In this document: positions 2,420-53,372 of the stretch, piece after piece
Position numbering within the stretch: the first letter of the stretch is position 1
Layout: each line of letters starts with the position of its first letter
DNA from: a virus
Taxonomy: Duplodnaviria > Caudoviricetes
IMG/VR virus record: IMGVR_UViG_3300021400_001327
Span: 1-64,000 of that record
Length of the DNA: 64,000 nucleotides
Strand: one strand, 5' to 3'
Translations under genes and position numbers: made by a program
Notes under the pieces: model-generated
The model's input: the letters and a program-made list of their open reading frames with translations, nothing else
Told to the model about the DNA's origin: nothing
Databases searched by the model: none

Positions 2420-5400
2420 TTACGCCCCTTTGGAGTAGATGGCCTGTACGAGATAACCGGGAAGCTGAGCGATGATTGCATCGCCGAGTTCCTTCGCGTC
2501 GTTCACACCGTTGAGGACAATGTCACCGATGTCGATGGACACGTCTCCGCCAGTCGTACCCTCAAGAATCTCCGGCATATCAATACTCTTCAGCATGCTG
2601 GTCAGCAAAGACGACACCTCAGACCCACGGTTGATAGTATCGTAGTACCTCGTGAAGTCGATGCCGCTAAGCACGTCCGTCACGGGGAGTAGCTGATTGC
2701 CCATGTTGTCATAGATGTTATTGTTCGTCTTCTGTTTCTCAAGGCCGTCAATGACCATCTGATACATCTGATCGTTGATGGCGTCCTGCGCGTCTTCCAG
2801 CGCGTCCTCATCGGCCACGTAGTGGAAGCCTTGCTGGTTATCGTACAGGAGAACCCTGCGCTGTCTCGCGTCTTCGAGTTCGTTCAGCGCGTTCATCAGA
2901 TCGATTTGGCGCTGATACTCGTCATTCTGCTTTTCAAGGACCTCAATCTTCAGGTCGAGAATGGCATCGTTCCACTCCTCCTGATTGGCCTTGATGTCCA
3001 TGATTTTATCTTCGTTGTCCTGAAGCTGTTTATTCAGTTCCTGATACTTTTCAGACAGGACATCCAGCCCCTGCATCTGGTCACGAAGCTCATTGTTCTG
3101 CTCGCGCAGGTTGTCGATTTGCTTCATGCCAGCAGAGATGAGGTTCCTGTAGCTGTTGATTTCGGCGTTTCCGCCCTGCGCTTCACGCAGTCTCTGCAAG
3201 CCCTCAATCTTGTTCTGGAGATTATCCAGATAGTAAATGCTGGTTTGCAGATTGTTCATGGTGATGTTCCGCGCCTCGTCGTTTAGTTCAGACAGGTTGA
3301 CCTTTGCGTCGCTGATCGTCGAGTTGAGCTCTTCAATCTGCTTCGCGTAGTTGTACCAGTCGTCACTGCCAACCTTAATGATACCGGCGTTCACCTGATC
3401 AGTGAGCTCTGTCTGTAGCGCGTTCTGTTCCTCGCCGAGGTTCTTGATAACGCTCTCTGTCAGCTTAATGGCATCGAGATAGTCGTCTTTAGTCATTTCC
3501 TGACCATATGCTTCCTTTACCTCAATCAGCTTGTTGAACGTGTCTATTTGCTGGTTGAGCATTTCGTCAATGTTTCCGAAGCTGTTTACGATATTGTCCA
3601 GCTTCTGCTTTGACAGGTCATACAGCTGATCGTTCAGGGATTCGATGGTTTCCTCGCAACCCTTCGCTTTGTCCCACCATGTCTGGTAGGTCTGAATGGC
3701 TTTTCTGGTCTCCTCGTCGTACTCTTCGATGTCGATGGTGCCTTCCTGAATCTTCTTCACGACGTCAGCCGCAAGCCCAGCGCGGGACGCGAAGTCCTCC
3801 GCTTGCTTCTTGTAGCGGTTGACAGCCTGTGTGTTCAGATCGAGCTCGGCTCTGACGTTCTGGATGGCTTTGGTAAGCTCGCTGTTTTGCGCGAGATGAC
3901 CGATGCTCTTCTCAGAAGACTTGATGTAATCAGATGTCTTTTTCTTGAGGAGTTCGAGCGCAGTGGGAATCCAGTCGACGAGCTTCTCAGCCCATTCAAG
4001 AGCGGCTTTGATTCCGCCGCCTTTCTTGCCGCCACCGCCGCCTTTTTTCTTTGTGGTTCCAGCGGTCGTAAGAATATCGCCAGAGCCATCGACCCACGAC
4101 GCCAACGAACTCTTCCCAGACGTCTTAAATACAAACGCGTCCTCTCTCGCCCGCATGCTCGCGAACGCTCCGCCGCGTTTTACACCACCGTTTCTGAACG
4201 CGTCAAACACTCGACCGATCAAACCGCGCCGTTTGATTTTCTTCGTCTCTTCGGCGTTGTGAACAATGTCACCTTTGTTCAGGTTCGTAAACCTCGGACC
4301 GTTGTCGGTACCAAGCTCGTACGTCCCTTCGCTGACGTGCTCAATCAATTCGGCGCCCTGCTCGTCAACGAGCGACATGCCAGGGTCGGCGCTTGACGTA
4401 CCAGACGCGCTTGCTTTGCCGGACTTACGAGAGTCTGTGATATCAATTGGTTCGCCAGTGTCTCCCCCACGATAGCCGGGGTCGTTATACTGAATGTTGA
4501 CGGTGTACGTCCCGCTCTGCCCGTCAAGAGCGTTGATGCTCTGTTGCGCAGCGGCTGTATCGCCGTTTACGTCAACAGTAACGGGCTCCTCGGACACCTC
4601 TTGTACAGCGGCGGTCACCGGCTCGATGTTCGGTGCGGGCGCGTTCATCATTTCTTCCTGCGTGATATGCAGGGCCTCATCATAGGCGGACGCTTTCTCA
4701 AACGCGGCGTCCCAACCCTCTTGCACCTGCTGTAACCAGAGCAACAGACCTTTGCCGCCGTTCTCGGGCTTGTCTGCGTTTACAATACCTTGGATCGTGT
4801 CATTCTGAAGCAGTTCAGACACATAGTCATACATTGCGTCTTCGTCCAATACCTCTCCGTTGGAAAGGATTGGCGTCATGTGCAGGATAATGTCCTGATT
4901 ATACGGCTCTCCATCAGTACCGGCAGAGAACTCCATTGAATACAATGTGGCGATATCATCATCCCCGACGTCGTATCCGGCGGCTCTCATTTTCTCCGCG
5001 CCGACCTGCGGGCGCTTTCTGAGATTGACATTTTTAACAAGCTGGTCGAAGAAGTCGGCGAGACTTGCTGTTACGCCAGCAAACAGTTCCCTGTTGACAC
5101 CCATAGAACTGAGCACAGTGGCGATACTGTCGTCGTCAGCGTCCTTAAACGCGCCACCTTTATACTCCTGCCTGACCCTGTCGAAGTCATACATTGACTT
5201 CATCGTCATCATGGCCGCGTCATGCAGGTCGCCTTCGCTATCACTCAGAGATTCAAAGACTTCCTGGAATGCCTGTGCAGCCTTCTCCTCTTCTGTCGGC
5301 CCAAACTTTTCGGCATAGCCCTCCGGCGAGTAAAGCTGTGTACCTTTATACAGGGGTGCTGTTGGGAATTTGGGTTCAGGTACATCCGGCGCGTCTTCTG

Positions 5401-8400
5401 TGAATGCTTTGTATACAGACGTCGCTGTGTCCTCGGCGCCGTAAACGATTCCGGCAAAGAAGTCCGCTAACGCCTTACTCGCTCCATTAACAGCGTCGGT
5501 TCTGTTCTGACTGGCCTCTTCAGAAAACAGTTCACCAATTCCACCAAGCAAATCGCGTATCGGTGACAAGAAGAACGTCTCGGTGTCCTGAACGGCGAGT
5601 TTACGCAACGTGTCACCGATGCCGGTGAAGATGGCGTCTCCGTCAATGATTCCTTCTGCCGCGTTCGTTGCCTGAGCATTTTGTAGGTTCTCCTCAAACA
5701 TCTGATCAAGAAGAGCTTGCCGCTCTTCTGCCTCTTTCGCAAGTGCGGCAATTCTGGCAGCTTCAGCCTCGGCGGCTTCGCGTGCGGCTTCTTCAGCGGC
5801 AACCATTATTCTCTCTTGCTCAGCACGATACGCAGAGAGCGCATCATCGAACGTTGTTCCAGTTTCTAAATCTTTTGCGGCGAGATTATCGATGTTTTCT
5901 TGGTTTAATAAGAACCGCAGTACGTCTTTGCTGGACGGTTTTCTCGCTCCTGTATTTCCGGTGATTTCAGCAAATCTGGACGTCAGTTCATTAAAATCAA
6001 ACATGCTCTGCGCGACAGCCAACAATTCATCATCGTTGATATTTCCAGACTTATACTGCTCGGCGAGTCTGTATGCACTGGAGTTCTCAACTTCCTGACG
6101 GTGTTGTTCGCGCTCACGGAGCATCTGATTTGTTCGACGTGTCTCGTCTGTTAAACCAAAGCGGTCTGCGTATTCCTCCGCAAATTCATCGAACAATTCT
6201 CCGCTTTCCTGCATAGCTACGACGTCTCTGAATGCATCTACTATTGCTTTTGCCTCAGCGTCAGCACTGTCTCCAGCGGCATCCACATAGTCAAGCACCT
6301 GTCTGATAAGACTATAGTCACCAGTGCCAGGTGCACCGTTTTGAAGTGTTGCCAGTAGTTTGCCAGTCGCATCATACTCCGGCCTCTGAACAAGTCCGCC
6401 ATTAGTCGCACGAGCATACATGCCATATGTGCTTAGCAAGGCGTTGCCGTTTTTGTCCTCAAATGTCGTTGTGCCGTCTTTGGCTGTTACGCTTTCCACG
6501 TCGCCAAGCAACACCTCTGACCCATCGGCGTTAATGAAGAGTTTGCCGTTCCTGTAATCAAACTCGCTGTTGGCGATCCGATACGCATCATTCAGCGTGA
6601 GCATACCGCTCTCGTCGATTTTCGCGCTCGTGATTTTCCCGATGTCTTCTGTGTAAGTGCTGATGGCTTTGCCGTCCTCGCCGATTTTGCTCTTCGTGGC
6701 TGTGACATTGCCTTTTTCGTCCTGTTTGAGTTTCCACTCGTCATAGTCACCGAACATCATATTAAATGCATCTTCGGGGCTCTTGAAGATACCGGTGTTC
6801 CTACCCATCTCATCGAAGTACAGAATACTTCCATCTTTCCCGGCCATAAACGAGCCGCCGCGACCTTCCTGCGCGAGCATACCGTTCAGCGGGTTGACCG
6901 CGAGTGCCGCATTGAACGCAGACAGTGCGGAGGTGGCCGCTCTTACAGCCGAGGCGTTGTCGTTGAATGCCGTTGTGTCCTCACCGGCGGCGTCGGTAAA
7001 TGAGCCGAAGCTCTCTGCGGCGGCCTCGCTGGCATCTTGGACTTTTTTGTTGTACTCGGTAAAGACAGTCGAGTCCCAGCCGTCCTGCATCATCTTCACA
7101 AAGCTGTCATACACGTTACCATTGAACGTCAGCTTCCCGTTCTCATCAAGACCAGCGGCTGCACCCATGATGCTTCTGATGGTCTCAGTCACAGTCGAGC
7201 CAAGGATCGTCTGCATAGACTGATTGAGAGCACCAGTGAGATTAGACTGTATAAATTTTTGCCCATTTTCGCGGGTAAAGAATTTGCCGTTACCTTCGAT
7301 GCCGAAGTTGTCGTTCATCACTCTTGTGAGTGCGCCAAGCTGATCAGTGAGCCCACCAAACGTTGTGTCTGTCCAAACCTTCAGGGTATCACTGAAGTTA
7401 TCAAATGTCTGCGGTTGTCCATCGGCACCAAGAATAGCCTGTCCATTGCCGTCAACAAGTTTGAACTTGCCGTCCGCTGTTACATTAACATTGATTTCAG
7501 ATAGCGACGCGGCAACACTTTCCAGCGAAGCGAACGCGTTATTTGCACTCAGATTCAGTGCGGTATCTACCTGTGTGTATGTTTCCTGCGCACCGGTTAC
7601 AACGTTTGTAAGAACGCCTTGTCCCTTTTCAATAGAGAACTGAATGTTTTCACCAGCTGTGGCATATGCGTCATTGATAGCAACCACAAGACTAGCAAGC
7701 TCACTCATTGATCCGCTCGTAATTTCTGTCATCGCTTCCTGGGCAGAAGTATACACCTCGCCAGAAGACAGCCTGTACACACCATTGAGTGAATCGTAAC
7801 TGAACGACCTGTCGTCACCCATTTTCTCGAGAACGCCATTGAGTACATCAACAGACTTCTTTGGTGCTGTCATGATATCGCCGAACGCGGCGGCTATCAC
7901 TTCATCCAGTGTCTCAAACAATTTATCACCGAAGCTATACTGGCCGTCTGCCGTCATGCCGATTTTATCGAGAATGCCCTCTGCCGACAGCGCATCATTC
8001 AATGCATTGAGCCCTCTGGTAACCTCGGACGCACCTGTGCTCAGCGCCTCATTAAGGGTCTCTGTTGCGGCCTTGACTTCTGCCGCTTTGTCGGCGACGC
8101 CGGTATATTGACCGCCGATTTCGTTTATCCTATCAAGCGTACTCTGGATGCTGGTTACAGACGACGAGATAACGGCAGTGGCGCCCAACGTAAGAGTGCC
8201 GAACGTCTGCTTCTCACCCGTAGCGGTATCGGTTATCGTCTGTTGTCCCGCTTCTACAGTTGCCCTCAGGCTGGAGTCCGCCTCAGTGAGATAACTATTA
8301 ATACTCTCGATTGCGCTTGCGAGTGATGTTACAGCCTCGCCAGCAATGTCATTCAGGGCTGTCGCGGTAGACGTATACGACTTAACGAAGTTCCCCTGTT

Positions 8401-11400
8401 GGTCGAAGATGTCATACTGTTTTGTGTCCTTATTATATTTTGCCGTCTCTGTCCTGCCCATCGCCCTGAGTGTTGACTCAATAACATCAACAGAACCTGC
8501 TGTGCTTATTCCGCTAAATACGGTCTGAAGCATGCCAGCCAAATCATACTCTTCGCCGTCAACGGTAAACTTACCATTTTCGTTAATGCCAAGAGCTTTG
8601 TTGATGCCGAGGTCTGTCAGCGATTTCTGCCACGCGGCGAGTGCACTGTTTCCAAAGTCGGTACCGCTATCTGCCATCGCCTGAGCCAAACCGTCACCAA
8701 TCGGCTTCGCTTGTCCATCGGCAAGAATGATATTACCGTTAGACATATCGAGAGTGATTTTGCCGCCAGCAATGGTTTCCAGCGCGGCGGTCATTTTTGT
8801 GGCGTTGTCTCTCTCTGTTGTGATATAGTCACCGAACACGCCGGAGATAGCGGCAGCAAGGCTTTCTACTGGATTGCCGTTAACTGTCCACTGGCCATTA
8901 TCGTAGCCCATCGCGTTTTCAATACCCTTGCTTGCCGCGAGAGCATTGAAAGCCTCTACCATCGTTGATGCCTTTTGCGCGGTTTCGTTCCACATTTCGG
9001 CGACGGCGTCAATATTTTGCTCGTAACCGTCCTTCTTTCCAACGATATTACCGTTGGTGTCATAAATACGGTACCTGCCGTCATCGTCGAGCTTCAGCCT
9101 TGTCTTCAGCCCAGCCTGCGCGGCCTCTTTGTTGATTTGTATGACTTGTTTTTCAGCCTCGGTAACAATGTTTCCGTACTTCTCAGTCAGTCCATACAAA
9201 TAGTTCTGCACGTTCTCCAGCCCGACGACGGCGTTCCCGCTCGCGTCAGTAACAGGCGTACCATCATCGTAAACCAGCCGATGCTGTCCATCGCTATACG
9301 CGATTCGAGGTTTCCTCTCACCCTCTGGCATATTCAGACTCGCGATTAAAGCCGCGAGAGACATGAGCGCCGCCGTGTTGGCGTTAGTGGCCGACGTCAG
9401 GTCTGATGTTGAAGCCACGATTTGGCTGTTCATCAGGGTGGCGGCATCAATATTCTGCTCACCGGCCTTGCCCTGATAGTCATACCATGCTTTAATCAAG
9501 CCAGCCATGTCACCTTCGCCGCTGTTGTACTTCGCAACAGCTTCCTTGAAGGCGTTACTGCTCTTTACAAACTCTGTGTAGTCAGGCGCCTGCGCCTGTT
9601 CTTCGAGCGTCGGAGACTTGAGCTTGTACTTCTTACTTTCGTCAGCGATAAACTCATTGAGCTCGCCGAACATATGCTCGACCAGTTCAGAACTGATTCC
9701 CATCAGCCGCCCGATTTCTTCAGATGTGCGCTCGCCATTCAGTGTTCCATTCTTGTTCAGGATGCCAAGCTTAATAGCGTCCTCTTGGAAGTTCCTTGCG
9801 CCGTAGCCGGTGTCTTCGCTTTTCCCGGGAGCAGACTTAGTCAGGTAACGAGCCAGCAGCTTCCTCTGCTCTTCGCTCCCGTAATAGTTCCCACCAGCGC
9901 CAAGCAGGTATTCCTGTGCGGCCTTGTATTCAAGATTGCCGACACGGCCAGACTTATAGCCCTCCTCGAGTGCCTTGTATGCCTCGAGCGCTTCGTCGTA
10001 GTCGTCACCCTCCTGAGGTCCGCCCTTCGCCATCTGCCATTTGGAGTAAGCGGAGGTCGCGTCCTTGATTTGCGCAGCGAGACGATTATACAGGTCAATC
10101 TCCTGATTGATGAGGGTCATATTCTTTGTGATGTCAGCAATGCTTTCTTTCGCGAGCTTGAGCTGTTCCTCGCGGGTCTTACCAGCGACATCGGCAACGT
10201 TCTCGTTGCTGTACTTTGTGTACTCAGCAAGTGCATCCTGAAGCTTCTTGGCCTGCTGGACATACTCAGACTGCTTGCTGATCATATCAGCGTACATCTT
10301 CTCAGACGCGTCGTTCAGCTTCTTGACGACTTCTTTATTGAATGTGTCCTGATTAAACCAGATGGTCCCATGCGAGCTCTCGACTGCTTTCAGGAAATCG
10401 TAATCCCCCATGTCCACCAGAGACTGGTAGTCCTCTTCGCTGATGCCGCGAGTGCCGTAGCCGGTGTTTTTCCTGATGGTCGCGCCGGTCTGCCTGAAGC
10501 CAAGCAGGTCGGTGATTGTCTTAGACAACCCGGACGCCGTTGTCGTGCTGAGTTCGGGTGTGCCAGCAACATACAGTTCCTGCATCAGGCCAATGAAGTT
10601 TTCGATGTCAACATCGGCAGCTTTCAACTGAGCCCTGAATTTATCAAATTTCGCGTCATTCAGTACGTCCTCTGTGATTTTCACAGACTTCGCCATCTCA
10701 GTGATTTTATCATAGGTCGCCGCAAAGCCGCTGTCTGTCTTCCGAAGCTCGAGTAGTACTCTGTTGCTGTGAATGTCTGGGATGACGGTCGTGCCGATGG
10801 CGTCCCTGAACTCCCGCATGCGGGTATAAAGCTCGGTTGTCGTTTCTCCGCGAAGCTCCATCTGCTCCATACGGTCGTTCAGCGACTGATATTCCGTTAT
10901 CAGCTGTGCTTTGAGTTTCGCCGCAGACGTCCTTGTCGCTTCGCTGATATCTGCATAATTCTGATACACCATATCTGCGCTCAGACCAAGGAAGCGCATC
11001 TCATCACCGCTCGCGGCTTTGTTCTGCCAGTATGTGATTTGATCAGCGGCCTGATTCTGCATATCTCGCAGATAATTGAACATGGCAAGAGAGCCCTTGA
11101 TGTCGTTTCCGACAAAACCCTTCTCCATGTATTTGTTCGTCTGGTCAACAACCTCATCGACAGCGTTGAGCATATGCTCACTCATGACTGCGCTCATTTC
11201 CCTCTCGTCGAGTTCATAGAACGAGGCCATGTAGTCGTTAAGTTCTTCTTTTGTATCCTTTACATACTGTTCGCCGTCCGTCGTCGTGCCGAGATTAGAC
11301 AGCAGTGCTGGCAGCGACATGTTCATCTCATACTGCTTTTCCCACGCGGCCTTGTTCAGGTCATATGCAGTGTTGCCGCGCTCGGCCTCAAGCTGGCGGG

Positions 11401-14400
11401 CGATCATCAACTGTGTGCGAAGCTCTTCGGTCTGCTGTCTGAGGTCGTTCTTCGTCTGCTCGTCTGTGAAGTTCAGCGGTCCCTTGTCGACCAACGCCTG
11501 ATATTGTGCTTCGACATTGGCAAGCTCCTGTTCAAGAGACGCGACCTCATCCTTGGATTCCTTCCAAGACGCAGTGGCATCGTCTGCCGCTTGTGTAGCA
11601 ATCTGTTCAGCATTAGCCGCGTTGTTCCACGCTTCGCCGATTTTGCCAAGAGCCCACATGACAGCTGAAATAGCCGCCATCGCCCCGAGGTTGGCAAGCA
11701 ATCCTTTGAACACGCCGCCAAGCGCTTTGATTTTCATGCCAGCAACAGTGGCGCCGTCACCGACCTGAATCAAACCCTTGCTATATTTCAGAGCGAACTC
11801 GGTCGCTCCATTCATTGTATAGTTCGCACCACCCATCGACTCCTGCATTGCAGAGATAGCTTTCTGAGTGGCCACCGTTTTATCGAGCGTCTGTCCGTAG
11901 AACTTATTGTACTGCTCGACAAAATTGCCGTCTACTTTTCCAGAGCTTTTTGAGCCGAACGGGAGCAGTGATGCAAACCCTGTTAAGGCATTGCCGCCAC
12001 CGAGCTTGGCCAACCCAATCGTTCCAAGCGCACCGAACGCGGGACCGATTGCCCCGATTTTGCTGATGAGACTATCGAGCGCATTCAGGATATTGGCGCC
12101 GCCGCCATAGAACATTTTGATCATGTCGCTGTTGACGACCGTCTGCGAGAGGTTTTCCCACGACGCCGTCAACTGAGCCTGCTTGGCCGCGATAGAGTCG
12201 AGCCAGCGGGCGTGTACTTCTTCCATCGTGCCAGCAGAGTTCTCTGATGTCTTAAGGATCTCCTCTGCACGGCTCATGTTATTGAGCAACGCGGCTACTT
12301 GGTTCGATCTGACTTTACCGGCGAGCAGTTCAAGCAACGCGCTCTGCTTGATGTCCGTCATGTCGTTCCAGACTTTGGAGATACCAAGCATAATGTCATA
12401 CAGGTTCTTGTATGTGTCCTCATCCTGCATGATGTCAAAGCCGCCTTTGCCGTCAATATTCGTCAGCGCGGCGACCTGTGCGCGGAGTTTAGAAGTCGAC
12501 TCGGCCATATTTGAAGTGTCTTCTCCGGCCTCTTCTACATTTTTGTTACTCCATCCTTCTGGACGGGGGTGGGTCATTTCTGCCCACCTCTACGATTTCA
12601 TGTTGTTATATTCGTAGATCAGACCATACCTTCATCTCATGGAGATGTGTGGCATACGCATAGCTGTCACCAGCTACGCTGTGGTCGTTACGGGATTCTT
12701 GTATGAATAATTGATAAATACAAGCCTTACCCTCGGAGTTGCCCTCTTCAGGGTTTTCTCCGATTTGAGCCACATGTTTACCCGACTGTCACCAGTCGGG
12801 GGAGCAAGAAGTTTACTCTGTTTTTGCGCCACGGATACGCATAGACATCGTCCTAATAGCGTTACCGGCGCTACTCGCGTCACGCGTGACTTCCGTGATG
12901 GCCGTGATCATAGCCGTCGCCTGGTCAAGGTCGACTCCAGTCAGGTTCAGTGCGCTGGCAGAACGCTGAAGACCAGCCGCGATATCAGACGCCGTTACAG
13001 CATACGCGTTAGCTACGGCGGTCATCTTGTCGCTAACAGCTTCGGCATCGCCGACATCCAGTCCATCAAAACCACGGATGATAGCAATCAACGCGTCCGA
13101 CGCATCGTTCACGCTTTGGAAGTTACCGGTGTTCGCGAACTTCGTGGTGACTGTACCGAGCTCTTGGCTTTCAGCCAGCGAGTAGCCCATGCGGCCATAC
13201 TCGGTAGCGGTGTTGATAAGGTCTGCCACAGACGAGCCGATGGCCACAGCCGTCTTGCCGCTCTGTTTCTGGAAGCGCTCATACGCCGCCGCAGACTCGT
13301 CAGTAACTTTGCGGAGCTCAGTCATCGCCGTATCGATCTGGGTGACGTAGCCAGCCATCTTCCTGACGGTGCCCATTACCCTCTGCACAGCCATGAACGC
13401 AGAGCCAACACCGAGCACACGAGACGCGAGCTTAGACAGCTTCCCGTCATACACGCCGACCAACGCACCGCCAGACTCAAACGACTCGTTCAGCGCCTTG
13501 ACTTGGTTCTGCATGGTCGCGAACGACTCTTTCGCGGCTTCAAGGTTGCCGCCCCGGTACTGTGCTTCGTAATCTCGACGCATCTCCTGATACTGCTTGT
13601 CAAGAGCGAGTTGCGCAGGGCTCCACTTTCTACGGTCACCATTCTTGCTATTGATGGCATTGACCTGCTCTTCAAGACCTTTAGCCTGTTCGCGCAGTTT
13701 GCCAAATGCGTCAATGGTCGATATTTCCTTAAGCCTCGCCTCACACTGTTCGAGCGCCGCGTTCAGTGCCTTCAGGTTAGCTTCGCTCTGATCGGCCTGA
13801 TATGCTGAGTAAGCCCCCTCAAGCCTGTTTTTTATGGCTGTACTCTCAACCCTGTCTCCGTCTTCCCGCTCGTGTTCAAACCCGAGTAGGCCGTAGTTTT
13901 TGTCGCCTCTGACTTTCTGGTACTGCTGGACGGCTTCGACGTGCGCTCTCGCTTCATCTGAGATTTGTCCAAGCGTGGACAATTGCTGGTTAAACTCAGC
14001 CAGCCCGTTCGGCGCCCGGAGGTCAATAGCATTCAGGCTGGCCAACGCATCCCTAAGCTCCCGAATCTTCTGGAGCTTTGATGAGTCGACATCGAGCGAG
14101 TCCATCCAACCGTTCAGTGTATCATTGACATTGTTACGCTTGGTGTTTGCCCGGAAGATGTCCTGATCAATGGTCCGCTGGCCACGCATGCGCTTGATTT
14201 CTTCACCGATGCGAGCCTGAAGCTGTGTTACTGAGCCACGGTCATCGACGTTCGCGGTCTGGAAGGCGGCGAGCATATTATCGATCACAGTCGTGTCGAG
14301 CGTATGTCCCATCTTCTGATAGGCTTCGCGCAGGCCGTTGACCTGATTAACGTAGCCTTCATAGGCAGACGCACGTCTGGCTTCCAGTGTATCGTGGGTA

Positions 14401-17400
14401 TGCTCGGCATTATTGTAATTAGCGTCGGCTTTCTCGAACTCCTTCTGGGCTTCAGCCGCCGCTTTGATTTGCGCTGTCAGGTTAGCAAAGGCGTCAGCGC
14501 GGTCGCTCAGAGAACTATCATCCTTGAGCCCCGTTACCTGATTGATAGCGGCCTCAAGGTCGCTCCTTTGCTTCGCTACCATCGGGCTGTCTGTGCTCAT
14601 GCGGGACAACAGGTCGTTGGCCTCAACAAGCTGTTTATCTTCTTTGTCCCTGCGCTTCGCAGTATCCAGTAGTCCCTGAAGCCCTCTCATCTGCGTGATG
14701 CGGGATTCAAGGTCGCCGGTGCCCTTGAAACGAGACAGGGCATCGACCACTTTACGCAGGTAATCTGGCAGTTTCGGGGACGACATGCCGCCGTACGGCT
14801 GTGCCATCGTGGCAACCTGATTCCTGATGTTTTCAGCCTGTTTGTTCTGACCGGGCACCATCCTATACTGTCTGCGGTTCTGTTTGCCGAGCTTCTCGTT
14901 ACTCTGCTGGCGGCTTCTCCACTTCGGATACTTCACGTCGAGGTCATCGCGCATCGTCGCCATGTTTTCTTCGATTTCCCGCATGGCCGCATTGCGCTCA
15001 TCAGCGCTCTGCGCTTTGCGGTATCTTGCGATGGCCTTTCTCGCGGCGTCGAACTCCGGCGGCAGTCCGCCAGACCCACCGTTCATGGCGTTATATTTGT
15101 TTTTATACTGTCCCATCGTGACAGTGCTAATGCGGTTGACCTTGCGGTTCTCTTTTGCCAGACGGGTCTGTTCTTTCTGGGCTTTGTTCTGCTCTACCTG
15201 AACGCGATGTTGGTCACGGTATGCAGATGTCTGCTCACGATAAGAACGGGTAACAGCGTTCATGGCCTTTGCCATAGCGTTGTATGCGTCGACTCTGACC
15301 TGTGGGTTATCTTTGGCTGCCTGACTCTGGAAATCCTGATACGCCTTATCGAAATCACCGAAAAGCGAAGAACGACCAGCGCTATCGAACGTTTCATCTA
15401 TGCCGATTGCTCTGAACTGATTGATGAACAGTTTTCTCTGGGAAAGCATGTCCTCAACATATGTGTCCATCTTCTCGACAGCACTGCTCGCCCATTTCTT
15501 CTGCATCTGTTTATTCAGGGCGCCAACACTGATTTCTAAATCTTTTACGGCGCTTTTGGCTTCTTGCAGGGCGTTTACGTCTTCGACGTTAATAAGGTCT
15601 ATCTTCCCAGCGTCATCGACTGTGGCAATTTGCATCCACTGCTTAAGTAACTCGTTCTTGTTTGGATCGCCCTGCATGACCGGCAGTTCGTACATAGCCT
15701 TCATCTTGTTAACAAGAGCTAACCTTTGCCGCTCATACTCCCTTTGGAAAGAGTCGAGCTTGCTTTTGTTAGCCATTGTGGCGATGTTGTTGTATAGTGT
15801 AGAATACTCTATATTTCCATCGTCGCCTACATTTGCGTCAAACCTGTACTGTGCGCGAACCTGTTCGCCAGACCCATACTTTTTATCGGCACCAGAGATA
15901 TTGATGCCGCGAAGTATACCGTTGGCCCCAAACAAACCAGTAATGGTTTTCTCTATAGCGCCGCCATTGTCGCCCAGAGAATCAAAAATTCTCTGAATCT
16001 CTCCTCCAACCTCACCAAGATTCAGAGAATTCAAAACTGTTTTTAGTTGTTCGAGAGATTCAAAATACCTAATCGTTCCACCGGGTGGTAAGTCATCTCC
16101 GCCGCCGCCAGACCCGCCACCGGGTCCGCGTCCGCCGCCCCCAACGCCGCTCATCAACTGCTTGTGCTCATCGTTGGCTTTGTTCTTTTTGTCGATTTGT
16201 TCCTGAAGCTTGCCCGCGTTGCGCTGACTTTCCTGTAAGTCCTTCTGGGCAGCCTGTTCGCTCTTCTTCGCGTCTGCGGCTTCCTTCTTTGCGGTCTCGG
16301 CTTTCTGCTTCTCTTGATTGAATTTCGTTTCCGCCTTCTCAGCCTTCTTCTCCGCCTGCTCTACCTGCTTCTTCAGTCTCGCGTTTTCCTTCTGAAGGTC
16401 AGAGTTTTGCTTCGACAGGTCTTTATCTTTCTGCTTGTTCTCGCTGGCCTGCTTCTGCGCTTCCGCGTTTTTCTGCTCGAGATTAGCGACCTTCTTCTCT
16501 GCATTCTGCGCCCGCTTTTCAGCTTGCGCAACCTTCCGCTCTGCTTCCTGTCTGGCTTTGTCGCTATCTTTGGCCTGCTTCTGCGCTTCATCGAGTTTAG
16601 CCTGCGTGTCCTGATCGGTTGAGGTTTTGCCTTTTTTGCCGCTACCTTTCTTGCCGCCGCCAGAGCCGTCTTCGTTCTGCCTTGTGCTCTGTTTCTTTTG
16701 TTCTTGCTTTTGCGCGGCCTGCTTTTGTGCGTTAGCCAACTGAGCTTTTAGACTGGCAATTTCTTCGTCTTTCGCGGCAGACTCTTTGCGGGCTTGCTGA
16801 GCTTCCTGTTGGGCGTGAGCAACATCGGCTTTCGCCTTAACAGCCTCCTCTTGTGCCTTTTGCGCTTCACGCGTAGCGCGGTTTTTGGCCTGTGATTCAG
16901 CAAGTTTATCGGCGTCTTCCTTATCATATTTTGCTATATCGCTATACGCCCTTTCTATAGAATTGACAAGGCTTTCTACTTGGGATGAAAAACTGCCGAT
17001 ATCTTCAATCGCAGAGGCGGCATCACCACCGCGTAAATTCTTTATAGCTTGCCACTTATAAATATTGGCATACTCCACATTGTCGTAAATATTGGCAATA
17101 GACGCGTTGTCTCTGTGCTTTCTATAGGTTGTTCTGTCGATTGCGCCGAGAGCGTCAGTCATTTTGATTCTCTGAGCGGCGATGGCCGCATACGGGTTTG
17201 CCGCGATTTCTGCTCTTCTCTTAATATCGCTGGGATTGTTCCATATTGTTCCCTTGCCGTACGGCTTCTCGAGCGCTTCAAGAGTCTTTCTGATATCGCC
17301 GAATTCCTTCAGTGTTTGTCCATAATTGCTCATCTGAGAAGACAACTGGTCGAGCGCACTGACAAGCCTGTCTATACCTTTGTAGTTGGCATCTCCTTTT

Positions 17401-17648
17401 TCGTTATCGCCAAACCACGATTCATGGACTCTACCCCAGCCGTAGTAACGAAACTGGTCGCCGTTATTGCCGTCGCTTTTTTCATTAACTGTTTGATTGA
17501 TTGTTATGTTTGTGACGCCGCCGGACGCATTTCCACCCCTGCCATTATTTCCAAGCGCTGAATCGATCCGATCTAATATCTGGTTGAACTGCGCACCGGT
17601 TATCCCCGAATTCGGTATCTTTCCACCAATATTCACTTTTCTTGCCAT
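2420..17648 (-). CDS. Giant tail tape measure protein, spliced (exons 17648-12815 and 12537-2420; ~4,983 aa)
   Basis: TP901-type TMP motifs (IDTAMTELRKVT, ANAYAVTASDIAAGLQRSASAL, LLELLAGKVRSNQVAALL). Removing 12538-12814 gives ...MRIRGAKTE-L-EEAGEDT in frame. Confidence 0.9.
12538..12814 (-). ncRNA. Group I intron (277 nt, no homing endonuclease ORF) in the tape measure gene
   Basis: 5' exon ends in U and pairs GAGU/GCUC (P1, U-G). P4 UCGGAG/CUCCGA; R CGUAACGACCAC and S AAGGUAUGGUCU (P7 GACCA/UGGUC); ends in G. Splicing restores the frame. Confidence 0.9.
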
Positions 17649-35094: not shown

Positions 35095-36292
35095 TTACTG
35101 CTCGGGTACAGTGACGGTGAACAGCTTCTTCTCGTGGTCGCAGTAGTCCTGCATGCAGCGCAGCGTGAAGGGATGCTGACCATCGGTGGTGAAGTCAACG
35201 TCGAACTCAGAGCTCAGCTTCGCAGCCGGGAAGTCGACATAGGCATAGTACTTGGTGGTGATATCGCAGGTGTCGTGGCCGAGGACCTCAAGCAGGAAGC
35301 GGCCAGCATCCGGGAAGTTGATGGCGTCCGCCACAGCCTGCACAGCGCCGTTGCCATCAGTGCCATCGGCGGTGTAGGTGTAGAAGGCCAGCACCTTGGT
35401 GTCCACAGTCACATTGGTGGGCGGGGTGATGGTCTTGGTCGCCGCGTTCACAGAGAACACATTAGCACCGGCAGAAGCCGCAACTTCGTACTTGGTGCCG
35501 AGGGTGCCGTCGGGGTTCACGACGTACAGATAGGGAACTTCCGCACCGGCGGTGCCAATCGGGATATGCTTCAGCTGAACGGTCACGCCGTTCTTGATGG
35601 TGAGCTCTTCGGAGACGGTAACGTCAATGGTAGCATTGGCGGCAGCCGTCTTCTTCTGAGTACCAGACTGAGCGGCCAGCAGGCCAAGGTCAAACAGCGC
35701 GTTGGCGGCGCTGAACTCACACTGCTTATTGCGCTCAACTTTTTGTTGTGCCATGCTCGCTACACATGACAGGCTGATTACTCAGCGCCTTGTACTTTCG
35801 CACAAGAACAGACTATATCTTCTCCCGCTTTGGGAGTGCATTACTTCGACCGTCAATCGCTTACGGTCTACTCCATATAGGATAGTCGTTGAACCTTCCT
35901 GTTTCCAGACTCGGCTGCTGATTGTCCATTGTTTGGCGTTTAGGTTTTACCCATGCGTCATACATACACTTTTTTCTGCTTTCGCTCTATTACGTTTGCG
36001 TTTCTCTCTATCGCTCCGTTTTAGCAGTATGTCTTTAGGATGTCCCAGCAATTCTATGCATCAATTATTACGCCGCTTTCGCGACGCCGACGCTCTGTTG
36101 CGCGTTGGGTTACGCTAACCACGTCATGATCGGTACACCGATAGCGTCAACAGCATCTTCGGAGTCCGCAGTCATGCTGAGGGACGGGTCGGTGATCTGG
36201 GTCAGAGTCCAGAGCAGATCAAAGGTACCCTTCTTGAACATCGTGCCACGGATGGCGCGATCAATAACAAAAGAAGAAATATCAAATGCCAT
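35095..36292 (-). CDS. Major tail (tube) protein, spliced (exons 36292-36121 and 35738-35095; 271 aa)
   Basis: Splicing gives ...DAIGVPIMT-F-ERNKQCEFSAANALFDLGLLAAQSG...; codon usage looks highly expressed; lies after the neck genes. Confidence 0.85.
35739..36120 (-). ncRNA. Group I intron (382 nt, no ORF) in the tail tube gene
   Basis: P AAUUGCUGGGACA, Q AAUCAGCAGCC, R GUUCAACGACUA, S AAGAUAUAGUC; P1 GACGU/GCGUC; U before the 5' splice site and terminal G. Confidence 0.93.
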
Positions 36293-49882: not shown

Positions 49883-50569
49883 TCAGCGAGAACCAAGACG
49901 CAGAGCCGCATACAGCGCCTCGATGTCGTTGTCGATAAGTTCGTGCTCTCCTGTATTTTTATATGGCACAAGCAGTTTGAAGCATGACACAGAGCGGCGA
50001 TATTTTGAGAAACGACCAGCGGCCTTGCCTTTGTCTGTATCTACCTTTGCGATGTATTGCCACTCGCACAGGCGGCGGATATTGCGCCCGCGAACGTTGG
50101 CGCCTTTCATATCCAGCCAATTAGCCAGTTGCTCGGTTGACGCCTGAAACACCCCACGCCTGTCAGCGAACGCCTTTGCATTGCACAACAGGGCAAGCGC
50201 CACCTTCCTGTCTGTCTCTGTCGGCGCATGGTCCACGATATTCTGGGCGTCTGTCTCTGATACGAACACACGACAGCCACTGTGAAGCTCGGCTTCATTG
50301 ATGTACGCAGCGTTGACGCACTGAAGGAGATTCAGCCCGTTCGTCTTGTGGCCATTCAGCCAATCACGAATAAAGGAGACGGCGTCCACTGGGGACTCGC
50401 CGTCTGCCTTCATCAGCTTGGATATCATATAACATGCCCGATACAGCCGACTCTGCTCCTCTGGCGGCTGTCCAGACATATACTTCTTAACTTCCGCGAC
50501 CTCGTCAATCATCGTCATCCTCCAGAAAATCAAAGATGCCCGGTTCAAGCGAGATGTCCATCTCGTCAC
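49883..50569 (-). CDS. Hypothetical protein with a possible winged-helix domain (likely start ~50512-50518)
   Basis: STEQLANWLDMKGANVRGRNIRRLCEWQYI resembles a wHTH; lies directly after the RNAP gene. Confidence 0.5.
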   Translation of the reverse strand: MTRWTSRLNRASLIFWRMTMIDEVAEVKKYMSGQPPEEQSRLYRACYMISKLMKADGESPVDAVSFIRDWLNGHKTNGLNLLQCVNAAYINEAELHSGCRVFVSETDAQNIVDHAPTETDRKVALALLCNAKAFADRRGVFQASTEQLANWLDMKGANVRGRNIRRLCEWQYIAKVDTDKGKAAGRFSKYRRSVSCFKLLVPYKNTGEHELIDNDIEALYAALRLGSR

Positions 50570-53330
50570 TGTTCATCGGGACCATCGTGTAGTGACGCCC
50601 AAGATAGCTGAGCTCGCCATCATCATCGCGCTTTGGCACCATGATGCCAGCCTGCGGCTTCACGTTCGCCACGACACCGTCCGGCGCCACGACCCAAGGG
50701 AACTTCCTTCCGCGCCCTTTGTACACCTCATGCACGAGCTTTGTAGCAATATTGGCCAGCACCCGCTGGTCATCACAAACCTCAGCGCACAGCTTCCTAT
50801 ACTTCTGATACAGCGCGTCCCAGTCGGCGATGAAGGTAGTCGCCTCGTACTTCGTAAACTGCTGTCTGATCTCACGGTCAGAGTACCGCCTGACTTTCGT
50901 CTGGTATTTCTGGAGCTCGTTCGTCTCCTTGCAGAAGTCTTTGAATATCTTGGCCACCGCGTCGAACTGCTCTTGTGTGTAGGCAATGCTCTCGTCGCAC
51001 ATCACACTGTAGTCGAATCGCTCCTTCCGCCGCCACTTAAGCTCACGTTCCCATTTCTCGAGCTCACGGCAGAGGCGGTTCATATTGCTCGGCGCTTTTG
51101 AAAGTTCCATCCTTGCGTAGTACGGCGACCGATACCGCATAAAATACGGGAGGGGTCTGCCCCACTTACTGATTACGCGGGGCATTGAATAAAGGACGCC
51201 GGTTTTTGCGTAATCGATGCTCTTCCCGACGATGGTACTGATAATGTCCTCATACTTCTCGTACCGCTCCTTCTGCTCATCTGTCTTCGGGCAGCGGTTC
51301 AGATATACACTCGCGTAGTTGCTGTACTCGCCAATCATATTCTTTGTTGTTCTGGTCAACAGCAGGACGCGACCGGCGGCGTCGTTGTTTTCCTTCAGGG
51401 CTGTGACCTTGTCTTCCATGTCGATAACGATAGTGGCGTTTTTGTCCGACCCGTCCAGGAAGAGCGGGTTGTCATTGACCAGTACGATATCACCCATAAC
51501 CCACCGGCTTTCGCCGATGGCCGGACTATTTCTTTACCCATTGCTGGGCAGCTGGCACTTCGCCGACTGGAGTTTCACCAGCCAGCTACTCCTTACGGAT
51601 AGTCTCTACACCTTCCTCTCACGAGGCTTGGCACGGCATTGTCCTGCGCTCATGCGTTTAGAGTTTTGCCGTTAGCCGACCCAAAAGTCCATATATTATT
51701 GATAGTGGTCATTTGGTCCGACACCCCAGTTGTCTGGGTTCACCAGCTTTTCATCATCACGTTACCGTGATGCGCGACAGTGTTACTTATCGAAATCCGC
51801 ACCGTTCAATCTCTGCGCCACTAAGCTCTTTATGTTCAGCATAGCCACATTTGTCAGGTGGCCGCACCATTTCCAAATCTCGTCCGCGTTATTCACTCGG
51901 AGCACTACGTTCTCGCTCCGGCAGATGTGCGGGTTTCTTGTCACGACGTATTCCCCGTCGTACGTGATGCCCTTGCCTTTCGTCCAGAACTCATCGGCGC
52001 CGAGACAGCCGACAACCGGAAGTCCGCCAATGTGTTCCGCAAACGCGATCAGGTCTGGGGCGATAAACTTGAAGCATGACTTAATGTACAGCTTACCGCA
52101 CTTCATATCGTTGATAAACTTGTCCAGCAGGGACATGATGTATTTGTTCACTGTTGGCTCTTTCATCATGGCGTCGTTCTTAGCAATCGCCGCCACGTAC
52201 GCGTTCAGCGCGTTGCACTTCCCGTCTACGATACCAAGGAAGCATTTGGTAAAAAGCTCGTCTCCGCTAACGATGCGCTCAATCCACCTCGCAGACTGGT
52301 GGGCCAAGGTCTTGAAGTCCTCATAGGGCAGGTCCAGCGTCTGCAAGACCTGATAATTGCTCCGTGTGTACACCGGCTCTTCCTCTTCGGTGAAGTTGGC
52401 GCGGGCAATAGAAATACAGTGTTCGTATTTATAGAACGCATCCCAGTACCGTTGCCAGTCCCTTGCGTCGCCGTACTGCTTGAAGTAGCCGAGCCCCTTG
52501 TACATGCTCTCGCTCAGGATGATCATCTCTTCGTGGATGCTGTGCTTCTGCCCCCACAGGTCCTCAATATACTCGACGCCGCGCTCCTCGTAGAAGCCCT
52601 CGTAGTCGAAGACGTGAAGACACCCTTTAATGAACGGCTGCCTGTAGATGACGGTGGTGATGGGCGTTGTGCTGTTGGTCAGCGTCTCCATCCAGTGAGC
52701 CACGTTCTTATGCATGATGCCAACACCATCGAACGCGTTGATCTCGTAGTCGAACACGCCCTCGGCGATGTCCTTCTGCGTAAAGTTGAACTCTTTGCCT
52801 TCAGAGTTCGTGTACGTGGTCACCTTATCAACAAGGTGTTTGATGCGCTGGTTCTTGATGGTCGTCATCATGTCCGGCACAACGATCATCTTCGGCACAT
52901 AGTTCTCGATGCAGTGTGCTGATGAAAGCGCGAGCCCGCGATAGGCGTACCACTTGCTCAGTACCGTCTTGTCGATTTTCAGCCCCATCGTCACGCGCTC
53001 TGTGAGCTCGTCCGCTATCGAGGCATCGACCATCGACAGTACGCCCTGGCGCACCATAGACGCGCTGCGCTCGCCGAGCACGAACGGTCGCCCGCGTATC
53101 TTGATACCCTCCAGCGCAAGCCGCGACAGTGTAACAGCGATATCCTTGTGGTAGTTAATGTCCACGAAGATGATATACGGGTTGTACTTCGACGTCACGC
53201 CGGTGATGCGCCTGATCTGTCTCAGGTACTGGCTGTCGGCCTGCTTGATGAAATACTTCTTCTCTTCCTCTGGCGAGATATCCAGACTGAAATCTGCCTT
53301 TACGATCGTACGCAGATCAATCGAGCGCAC
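50505..53330 (-). CDS. yonO: YonO-like single-subunit (cellular RdRP-fold) DNA-dependent RNA polymerase, spliced (exons 53330-51789 and 51494-50505; ~843 aa)
   Basis: SASMVRQG, AFDGVG, RQPFIKG, VTRNPHI..SE, RLNGADFD|GD, GKSIDYAKTG; heads an SPbeta-like late cluster. Confidence 0.88.
51495..51788 (-). ncRNA. Group I intron (294 nt, no ORF) inside the RNAP catalytic DFDGD motif
   Basis: P1 CGAU/GUCG; P UAACGGCAAAA; Q AAUGCCGUGC; R GUGUAGAGACUA; S AAGAAAUAGUCC; P9 GAAA hairpin; terminal G. Confidence 0.93.
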
Positions 53331-53372
53331 GATATACTGCTTAGGCGCCTGTATGTTGCAACACCGCCCTTC

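Follow-up and report, generated by a model that had tools for sequence, protein, structure and literature searches.

Does an insert that splits the catalytic motif of a phage RNA polymerase mark a dead gene, an enzyme assembled from two polypeptides, a regulatory switch, or a mobile intron that the phage merely tolerates? The question is raised by the IMG/VR virus record IMGVR_UViG_3300021400_001327 (Duplodnaviria; Caudoviricetes), a complete 107,314-bp genome with direct terminal repeats whose first 64 kb (positions 1 to 64,000, hereafter the window) we analyzed. A sequence-only reading of the window had proposed that a self-splicing intron divides the DFD|GD motif of the phage's own YonO-like RNA polymerase and that late transcription could thereby pass through a checkpoint sensitive to guanosine triphosphate (GTP) and Mg2+. 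Our analysis bears out the intron and its position but not the checkpoint. With a probability of about 0.88, the insert is an IA-like group I intron without an open reading frame (ORF), lying between the second Asp and the Gly codons of NGADFD|GD in a YonO-type polymerase gene; it belongs to a mobile lineage and is best regarded as a selfish element that is tolerated at a conserved target, not as a regulator. Alleles without the intron fix its boundaries and covariation establishes its fold, with further support from a guide that tracks its exon and from the colinearity of the joined product; for the splicing steps we extrapolate from the established chemistry of group I introns.

The polymerase gene and its intron lie on the minus strand of the window, as do all window features given below. 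Exon 1 (51789..53330) comprises 514 codons from a GTG at 53330 and ends in ...NGADFD, its last base being T51789. Exon 2 (50505..51494) comprises 329 codons and a stop, starts with GDIVLVNDN and includes a second conserved motif, GKSIDYAKTG. As called, the two halves are an ORF at 53330..51783 (P0001, 515 amino acids) that ends in ...QRLNGADFDK* at an in-frame TAA (51785..51783), the second triplet of the intron, and an ORF at 51497..50505 (P0002, 330 amino acids) whose N-terminus is MGDIVLVNDN and whose ATG at 51497 is the last three nucleotides of the intron. Both ORF ends, like the 294-nucleotide interval 51495-51788 between the exons, are exactly as the sequence-only reading had placed them. 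Joining 51789 to 51494 yields a 2532-nucleotide frame with no internal stop, which encodes an 843-amino acid product with the junction NGADFDGDIVL and so an intact DxDGD metal-binding motif (NGADFDGD); the exon-exon junction predicted from exact removal of the 294 nucleotides is GATTTCGAT|GGTGATATC. Against the uninterrupted 851-amino acid homologue P0007, exon 1 aligns without gaps to residues 9-522 (86% identity) and residues 2-330 of the downstream ORF align without gaps to residues 523-851 (84% identity, 93% positives), so that the join of exon 1 and exon 2 falls at P0007 522|523 with neither gap nor overlap. Exon 1 also matches PHROG 8308 (E = 2e-53), and because an identical exon-1 protein (P0003) was seen on 12 contigs, the intron-bearing allele is not an assembly artefact. 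At the other end of the gene, the frame stays open for 8 codons upstream of the GTG, to 53354, and this extension aligns with the N-termini of homologues. Position 53354 has ATA where homologues show ATG and is preceded by GAAGGGCGG; the ATA may be a non-canonical start codon of the polymerase.

Several lines of evidence support the host gene being a YonO-type single-subunit RNA polymerase. Matches to the gene in tblastn searches included SPbeta yonO (25% identity, E = 3e-15) as well as "RdRP" genes of Thomasclavelia and Enterocloster phages, and the joined product aligned by blastp to SPbeta YonO (839 amino acids; E = 3e-23) continuously through the catalytic motif (LNGADFDGDIVLV / LLQFDNDGDKALI), upholding the proposed relationship to YonO across the very point of interruption. 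A Pfam search of each window exon separately gave no match. Uninterrupted homologues pass PF05183 (RdRP) with 53.5 and 58 bits (cut-off 23.8) over residues ~70-650, a span that includes both intron sites discussed below; the 53.5-bit match is to P0007, residues 77-648. Residues L516, G518, D520, D522, G523 and D524 are invariant in the 18 full-length homologues aligned, and the downstream genes for ClpP, PhoH and a metallophosphatase keep the same synteny as on the contig of P0007. A PDB profile search with the polymerase family alignment found no solved relative, and megablast against a phage collection found no near relative; relatives of the window phage were found within Clostridia genomes. 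In SPbeta, YonO transcribes the late operon and mutation of its Asp triad to Asn abolishes activity (PMC5467207), and the insert does split the catalytic DFD|GD motif; late-gene transcription by the polymerase of the window is inferred from SPbeta YonO.

The boundaries of the insert are set by alleles that lack it. Three related loci with ~81% nucleotide identity (L006, L008 and L116) join gene positions 1542|1837 directly, with exactly 294 nucleotides missing. Two of these (L008 and L116, the latter a 110-kb contig) carry an intron neither here, at site 1, nor at a second site, GKSID|YAKTG. L009 and L007 are without the site-1 insert but have a 303-nucleotide insert at the second site, while L005 and L011 have inserts at both. 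The site-2 introns of L009, L011 and L112 are homologous to the intron of the window. A metagenome scan for the intron-less junction returned only one contig, the 81% relative, and no near-identical intron-less twin.

Within these boundaries lies the architecture of a group I intron, including the P1 helix, the P, Q, R and S elements (GCUAACGGCAAAAC, ACAAUGCCGUGCC, GGUGUAGAGACUAUCC, AAAGAAAUAGUCCGG) and the terminal G that the sequence-only reading had listed, all of which could be located and their helices verified in window coordinates. The intron starts with AAGTAAC and ends with UUAUG, its terminal (omega) guanosine being G51495. In P1 (51773..51794), the exon sequence UUCGAU (51794..51789) faces the internal guide UGUCGCG (51779..51773) with 6 of 7 positions paired, and a U51789.G51778 wobble marks the 5' splice site. 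P10 (51491..51494) joins GGUG, with which exon 2 opens, to CACU (51782..51779), the sequence immediately upstream of the guide G, and all 4 positions are paired; in the corresponding columns of the site-2 introns, as read from the alignment, UAU pairs with AUG. P2 (51755..51772, CAUCACG / CGUGAUG) is followed by the 5' strand of P3 (51742..51747), whose GCUGGU pairs with GCCAGC at 51556..51551 and forms a pseudoknot with P7. Between the P3 5' strand and P4 stand two extra hairpins (51675..51738), hairpin A at 51738..51725 and hairpin B at 51722..51675, the second being 35 nucleotides longer than in the closest site-1 relatives. The P4-P6 domain (51611..51672) consists of P4 (ACGGCA/UGCCGU, 51672..51667 with 51638..51633), P5 (51647..51656) and P6/P6a (51611..51631) with a GUGA loop. 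The 5' strand of P7, the R element (51600..51604), pairs GACUA with UAGUC of the S element (51528..51524) as the guanosine-binding helix. P7.1 (51599..51590) and P7.2 (51586..51562) fill the interval 51562..51599 between P7 and the 3' strand of P3 and form a 41-nucleotide insertion relative to RF00028; such extra helices are a usual feature of subgroup IA and point to an IA-like architecture. P8 (51535..51550, UGCCCA GCAA UGGGUA) and P9 (51502..51519, CAUCGGC GAAA GCCGGUG) complete the fold.

The covariance-model search foreseen for this locus gave a full-length match to RF00028 (model positions 1-253) at 51798..51502, with an E-value of 8e-7 locally and 7.5e-5 over both strands of the whole 64-kb window, where it was the only Rfam match at E<=0.01; a full-length match at these E-values excludes chance. 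The fold of the single sequence recovers the same helices with a free energy of -109 kcal/mol (z = -4.3), and none of 200 dinucleotide-preserving shuffles folded as well. We then aligned eight introns, namely that of the window, the site-1 introns of L011, L111, L112 and L114, and the site-2 introns of L009, L011 and L112, with 10 and 8 exon bases as flanks. RNAalifold recovered P1, P2, P3, P4, P5, P7.1, P7.2 and P8 from this alignment with compensatory changes in 25 of 60 pairs. An explicit structure that includes the P3/P7 pseudoknot was paired in 98.5% of 470 cells, as against 84% with shuffled columns and 32-41% when the 3' partners were slid by 1-3 columns; double changes occurred in 26 of its 59 pairs and 0 of 500 shuffles reached the observed covariation score. 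Such changes fall in 6 of 7 pairs of P2, 6 of 9 pairs of P7.2, 5 of 6 pairs of P8 and 3 pairs of hairpin A, with a variety of pair types in each of P2, P7.2 and P8. P3 goes from G-C to U-A in the three site-2 introns and P4 from C-G to G-C in the site-2 introns. P9 goes from G-C to A-U in L011 and L114 and takes other compensatory forms in L111 and L113, judged by visual inspection of the site-1 introns alone, since in P9 MAFFT sets site-1 and site-2 introns one column out of register. Taken together, structure, covariation and precise intron-less alleles support the assignment of the 294-nucleotide insert as a group I intron. Other explanations were set aside: an intein is ruled out by the in-frame stops, the length of only 98 codons and the RNA structure, and translational bypass or frameshifting by the length of the insert and the presence of a ribozyme core. 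Weak matches to CRISPR-DR37 and group II D1-D4 inside P6 and P7.2 are due to chance.

The pairing of the guide with its exon argues in the same direction. Position 5/26 of P1 holds a U.G pair in the window; L112 has U-A there, and the site-2 introns have A-U. In L113 and L104 the exon ...UUUGAU meets the guide GUCA, as against ...UUCGAU and GUCG in the window. Exon position -1 is T in all six intron-bearing site-1 alleles and C in 2 of 3 intron-less alleles. Compensatory change has kept ribozyme core and guide alike, a pattern that implies that splicing is under selection.

A number of observations weigh against this interpretation or limit it. The RF00028 score of 33.7 bits is below the Rfam gathering score of 50 (a database threshold and not a biological criterion), and at gathering thresholds Rfam finds nothing in the 64-kb window. 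Homologous or neighboring introns in relatives score 30.8-42 bits (L081, L104, L112 and L113) and the site-2 intron of L100 scores 104.6, and the single RF00028 model is weak for the lineage of the polymerase intron. The aligned introns are related and fall in two clades, so the compensatory counts do not represent eight independent events, and P7 and P7.1 are invariant in all eight, so covariation is no test of these two helices. Well supported as they are, both hairpins that separate P4 from the 5' strand of P3 lie outside the textbook core, an atypical feature that limits the classification to an IA-like type, short of IA1, IA2 or IA3. The in-frame ATG at 51497 precedes exon 2, and in this copy a C-terminal fragment might conceivably be translated on its own. 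Finally, none of the contigs in three gut metatranscriptomes from the same sample falls on the polymerase gene, a result with no bearing on its expression or splicing. With these points considered, we regard the element as a real and probably active mobile group I intron.

If the intron behaves canonically, ribosomes on the unspliced precursor transcript would halt at the early TAA of the intron and release a 515-amino acid fragment without the third catalytic Asp. The folded intron would place U51789.G51778 at the 5' splice site through P1, formed by exon UUCGAU and guide GUCGCG, and free guanosine or GTP bound in P7 would attack after U51789. The terminal G51495 would then take the guanosine site while P10 aligns the 3' exon, and ligation of the exons would give an mRNA for the 843-amino acid polymerase with an intact NGADFDGD.

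The polymerase family at large shows how frequently this motif is invaded. The contiguous catalytic motif is encoded in 77 of 103 related loci. The insertion point DxD|GD is used in the window and in L011, L087, L102, L104 and L111-L114, and a different one, D|FDGD, is used in L081, L082 and L100 by introns with an unrelated 5' end; protein truncations after QRLN suggest a third insertion point within the motif. Among the 120 best-scoring homologue clusters, ~55 are full length, whereas ~49 (~40%) break off within the catalytic motif and another ~17 end at site 2. In the window the second motif, GK(S/A)ID|YAKTG, is intact (50505-51215 region), and it is a second intron hot spot in many relatives, with inserts of 274-1227 nucleotides at slightly different points in L009, L011, L071, L076, L080, L083, L084, L086, L087, L100, L104 and L112. 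Several insertions in relatives are ~1 kb long and carry ORFs. L113, a 73%-identical relative, has a 1021-nucleotide site-1 intron with a 246-amino acid ORF (L113:4176-4916) that has no Pfam match and may be an unclassified homing endonuclease. Two further structured RNAs were seen near the polymerase gene in related phage or prophage loci, a ROOL RNA at L100:10065-10405 (179 bits, cut off by the end of the locus) and a RAGATH-18 RNA at L104:1599-1671 (66.6 bits).

The window phage itself holds at least three further group I elements in unrelated genes. One interrupts the DnaE-type DNA polymerase III alpha gene (locus L004, genome 91829-95031), where PF07733 is split at profile position 103|104. 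This DnaE intron of 843 nucleotides (L004:879-1721, genome 92707-93549, outside the window) interrupts ...EIGD|IDTD..., and its core halves are 75-79% identical to the polymerase intron. It carries an HNH_3/NUMOD4 endonuclease ORF in the P6 region, so that the endonuclease-free polymerase intron has homologues with ORFs both here and, of no known family, in L113. The 5' exon of the DnaE intron ends in GGCGAT and its guide is GGUCGCC. Polymerase site 1, polymerase site 2 and the DnaE site have in common only ...CGAT| on the 5' side, their 3' sides (GGTGAT, TATGCA and ATAGAT) having no obvious resemblance. Such sharing fits guide-directed ectopic insertion, and routes driven by an endonuclease or by recombination are also possible. 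We offer tentatively, as a scenario that is possible though rather doubtful, that one lineage was retargeted through its guide GUCG (exon ...CGAU) to three Asp-codon sites in two unrelated polymerases, the RNA polymerase sites DFD|GD and SID|YAK and the DnaE site GD|IDTD, the guide then co-adapting to each exon. If true, a phage would here provide a natural example of introns transposing to ectopic sites by reverse splicing, with the catalytic motif of YonO as a recurrent landing pad.

The other two elements lie within the window. A group-I-like element at 12578-12812 (~235-277 nucleotides; RF00028 match at 12603-12824, 22.5 bits) with an apparent P7 (GACCA/UGGUC) sits exactly between two co-linear giant ORFs: 17648..12813, which encodes 1611 amino acids with a C-terminal PhageMin_Tail domain, and 12577..2420, which encodes 3385. 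This arrangement implies a tape-measure-like protein of ~5000 amino acids that would be made by splicing. A second group-I-like element, at 35755-36120 (RF00028 match at 35789-36035, 25 bits), has R (GUUCAACGACUAUCC) and S (AGAUAUAGUC) sequences that are near-textbook; it is flanked by a short ORF that starts with an ATG at 36291 (MAFDISSFVIDRAIRG...) and by an ORF at 35754..35095 (219 amino acids). A Pfam search matched neither of these flanking ORFs, probably the two halves of a single intron-interrupted gene.

Given this distribution, could splicing of the polymerase intron nevertheless have been recruited as a checkpoint, sensitive to GTP and Mg2+, on the synthesis of the polymerase and with it on late transcription? 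Group I splicing requires guanosine and Mg2+, no active polymerase can be made from unspliced RNA whose stop lies two codons into the intron, and the late genes of SPbeta are transcribed by YonO (PMC5467207). The intron is nevertheless dispensable: the ~110-kb relative represented by L008 and L116 does without one at either site, L009 lacks the site-1 intron and carries one elsewhere, and most related loci encode the motif uninterrupted. Where the motif is interrupted, this happens at three or more different points and by unrelated introns, with some 40% of homologue clusters affected by different lineages. Group I elements also interrupt the tape-measure-like gene, the gene from 36291 and DnaE of the same phage, and there is no ligand-sensing domain or riboswitch nearby, nor any other Rfam match in the window at E<=0.01. 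Because the introns are absent in close relatives, occur in many lineages and positions and are found several times over in unrelated genes, we read them as selfish mobile introns on conserved DNA and not as an evolved regulator. The polymerase depends on splicing trivially, a use of that dependence for control is not supported, and the checkpoint on lytic development is in our view very unlikely.

Two other accounts dispense with splicing altogether. If the insert were a decayed, non-splicing remnant, the polymerase would assemble from the 515-amino acid polypeptide and the 330-amino acid one translated from the ATG at 51497; that in-frame ATG at the 3' end of the intron follows a GGTGG, and gene callers list the halves as separate proteins in public data. 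The GGTGG, though, is only 3 nucleotides from the ATG and within the P9 stem, the catalytic Asp triad would be split over two chains, and the compensatory upkeep of core and guide described above points away from such a remnant. Moreover, related site-1 introns measure 257, 259, 263, 281 and 284 nucleotides, none a multiple of 3, and several of the homologous site-1 introns, with 3' ends such as CG, AACG or AGG, offer no start codon at the border of exon 2, which together disfavors separate translation of exon 2. The length and start-codon pattern and the guide that tracks its exon fit selection for RNA splicing, and an enzyme of two polypeptides seems to us very improbable. Least credible of all is a pseudogene inactivated by the insertion in a phage that relies on the host RNA polymerase. 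Neither half alone passes Pfam, as might be expected of a dead gene, yet the exons are intact, with neither stops nor gaps, and at a nucleotide identity of only ~81% their products remain 86% and 84% identical, and 92-93% similar, to an uninterrupted homologue; the record is that of a complete genome that has terminal repeats, and the same allele recurs on 12 contigs.

Reading the insert as a mobile intron has consequences for how these polymerases are counted. In gene calls about half of the polymerase family clusters appear as fragments of ~520 or ~625 amino acids without a Pfam domain, so YonO-type phage polymerases are undercounted in gut viromes, and recognizing the introns restores them. 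The metal-binding motif of two-barrel polymerases emerges as a hot spot invaded at no fewer than three positions by two or more intron lineages, and the lineage that occupies three ...CGAT| sites, distributed over two polymerases within one phage group, provides material for studying how introns acquire new sites. A possibility raised by these data is competition between co-infecting gut phages mediated by introns or endonucleases. Knowledge of how group I introns or YonO work is unchanged.

Among known systems, the classical group IA introns of phages are found in T4 td, nrdB and sunY, in Staphylococcus phage Twort, in the DNA polymerase genes of SPO1 and Bastille and in SPbeta bnrdE and bnrdF. 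They are small and self-splicing, sit in conserved codons of essential genes, have P7.1/P7.2 and GNRA-capped peripheral hairpins, vary in presence among relatives and optionally carry endonuclease ORFs in peripheral loops. The intron of the window differs from them in its host gene, in its two extra P3-P4 hairpins and in its sub-threshold RF00028 score. That host gene resembles SPbeta yonO in the length of its product (843 versus 839 amino acids, 25% identical), in an alignment that runs through the catalytic Asp motif (PMC5467207) and in a neighboring YonJ-like metallophosphatase gene, but SPbeta yonO is uninterrupted. Our literature search found no paper linking YonO-type polymerases with introns. 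The one documented intron in a phage RNA polymerase gene, to which a single-subunit polymerase can now be added, is that of PhiPA3, where a group I intron with the HNH endonuclease gp210 occupies a beta-subunit gene (PMC11620839). There too the intron lies in a gene of the two-barrel type right after the conserved aspartates and is absent from related phages, but the gene encodes a subunit of a multisubunit polymerase and the intron carries an HNH nuclease that serves in competition between phages (PMC11620839). The polymerase of the window, by comparison, is a single-chain YonO-type enzyme, its insertion site is the DxDGD motif itself, and its intron has no ORF, the HNH-bearing homologue being the one in DnaE. 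ORF-less introns of this kind have metatranscriptomic proof in the gut 'Jug' jumbo phages, whose genomes each hold many short (~200 nucleotides) group I introns splitting terL, nrdD and DNA polymerase genes (PMC12880540). In both cases short ORF-less introns fragment essential genes, which gene callers then split (PMC12880540), although the phage of the window is smaller at 107 kb, has its relatives in Clostridia genomes and carries its intron in another target gene. Set beside these systems, the insert in NGADFD|GD looks like an ordinary mobile phage intron in a host gene with no earlier reported intron, not like a purpose-built switch.

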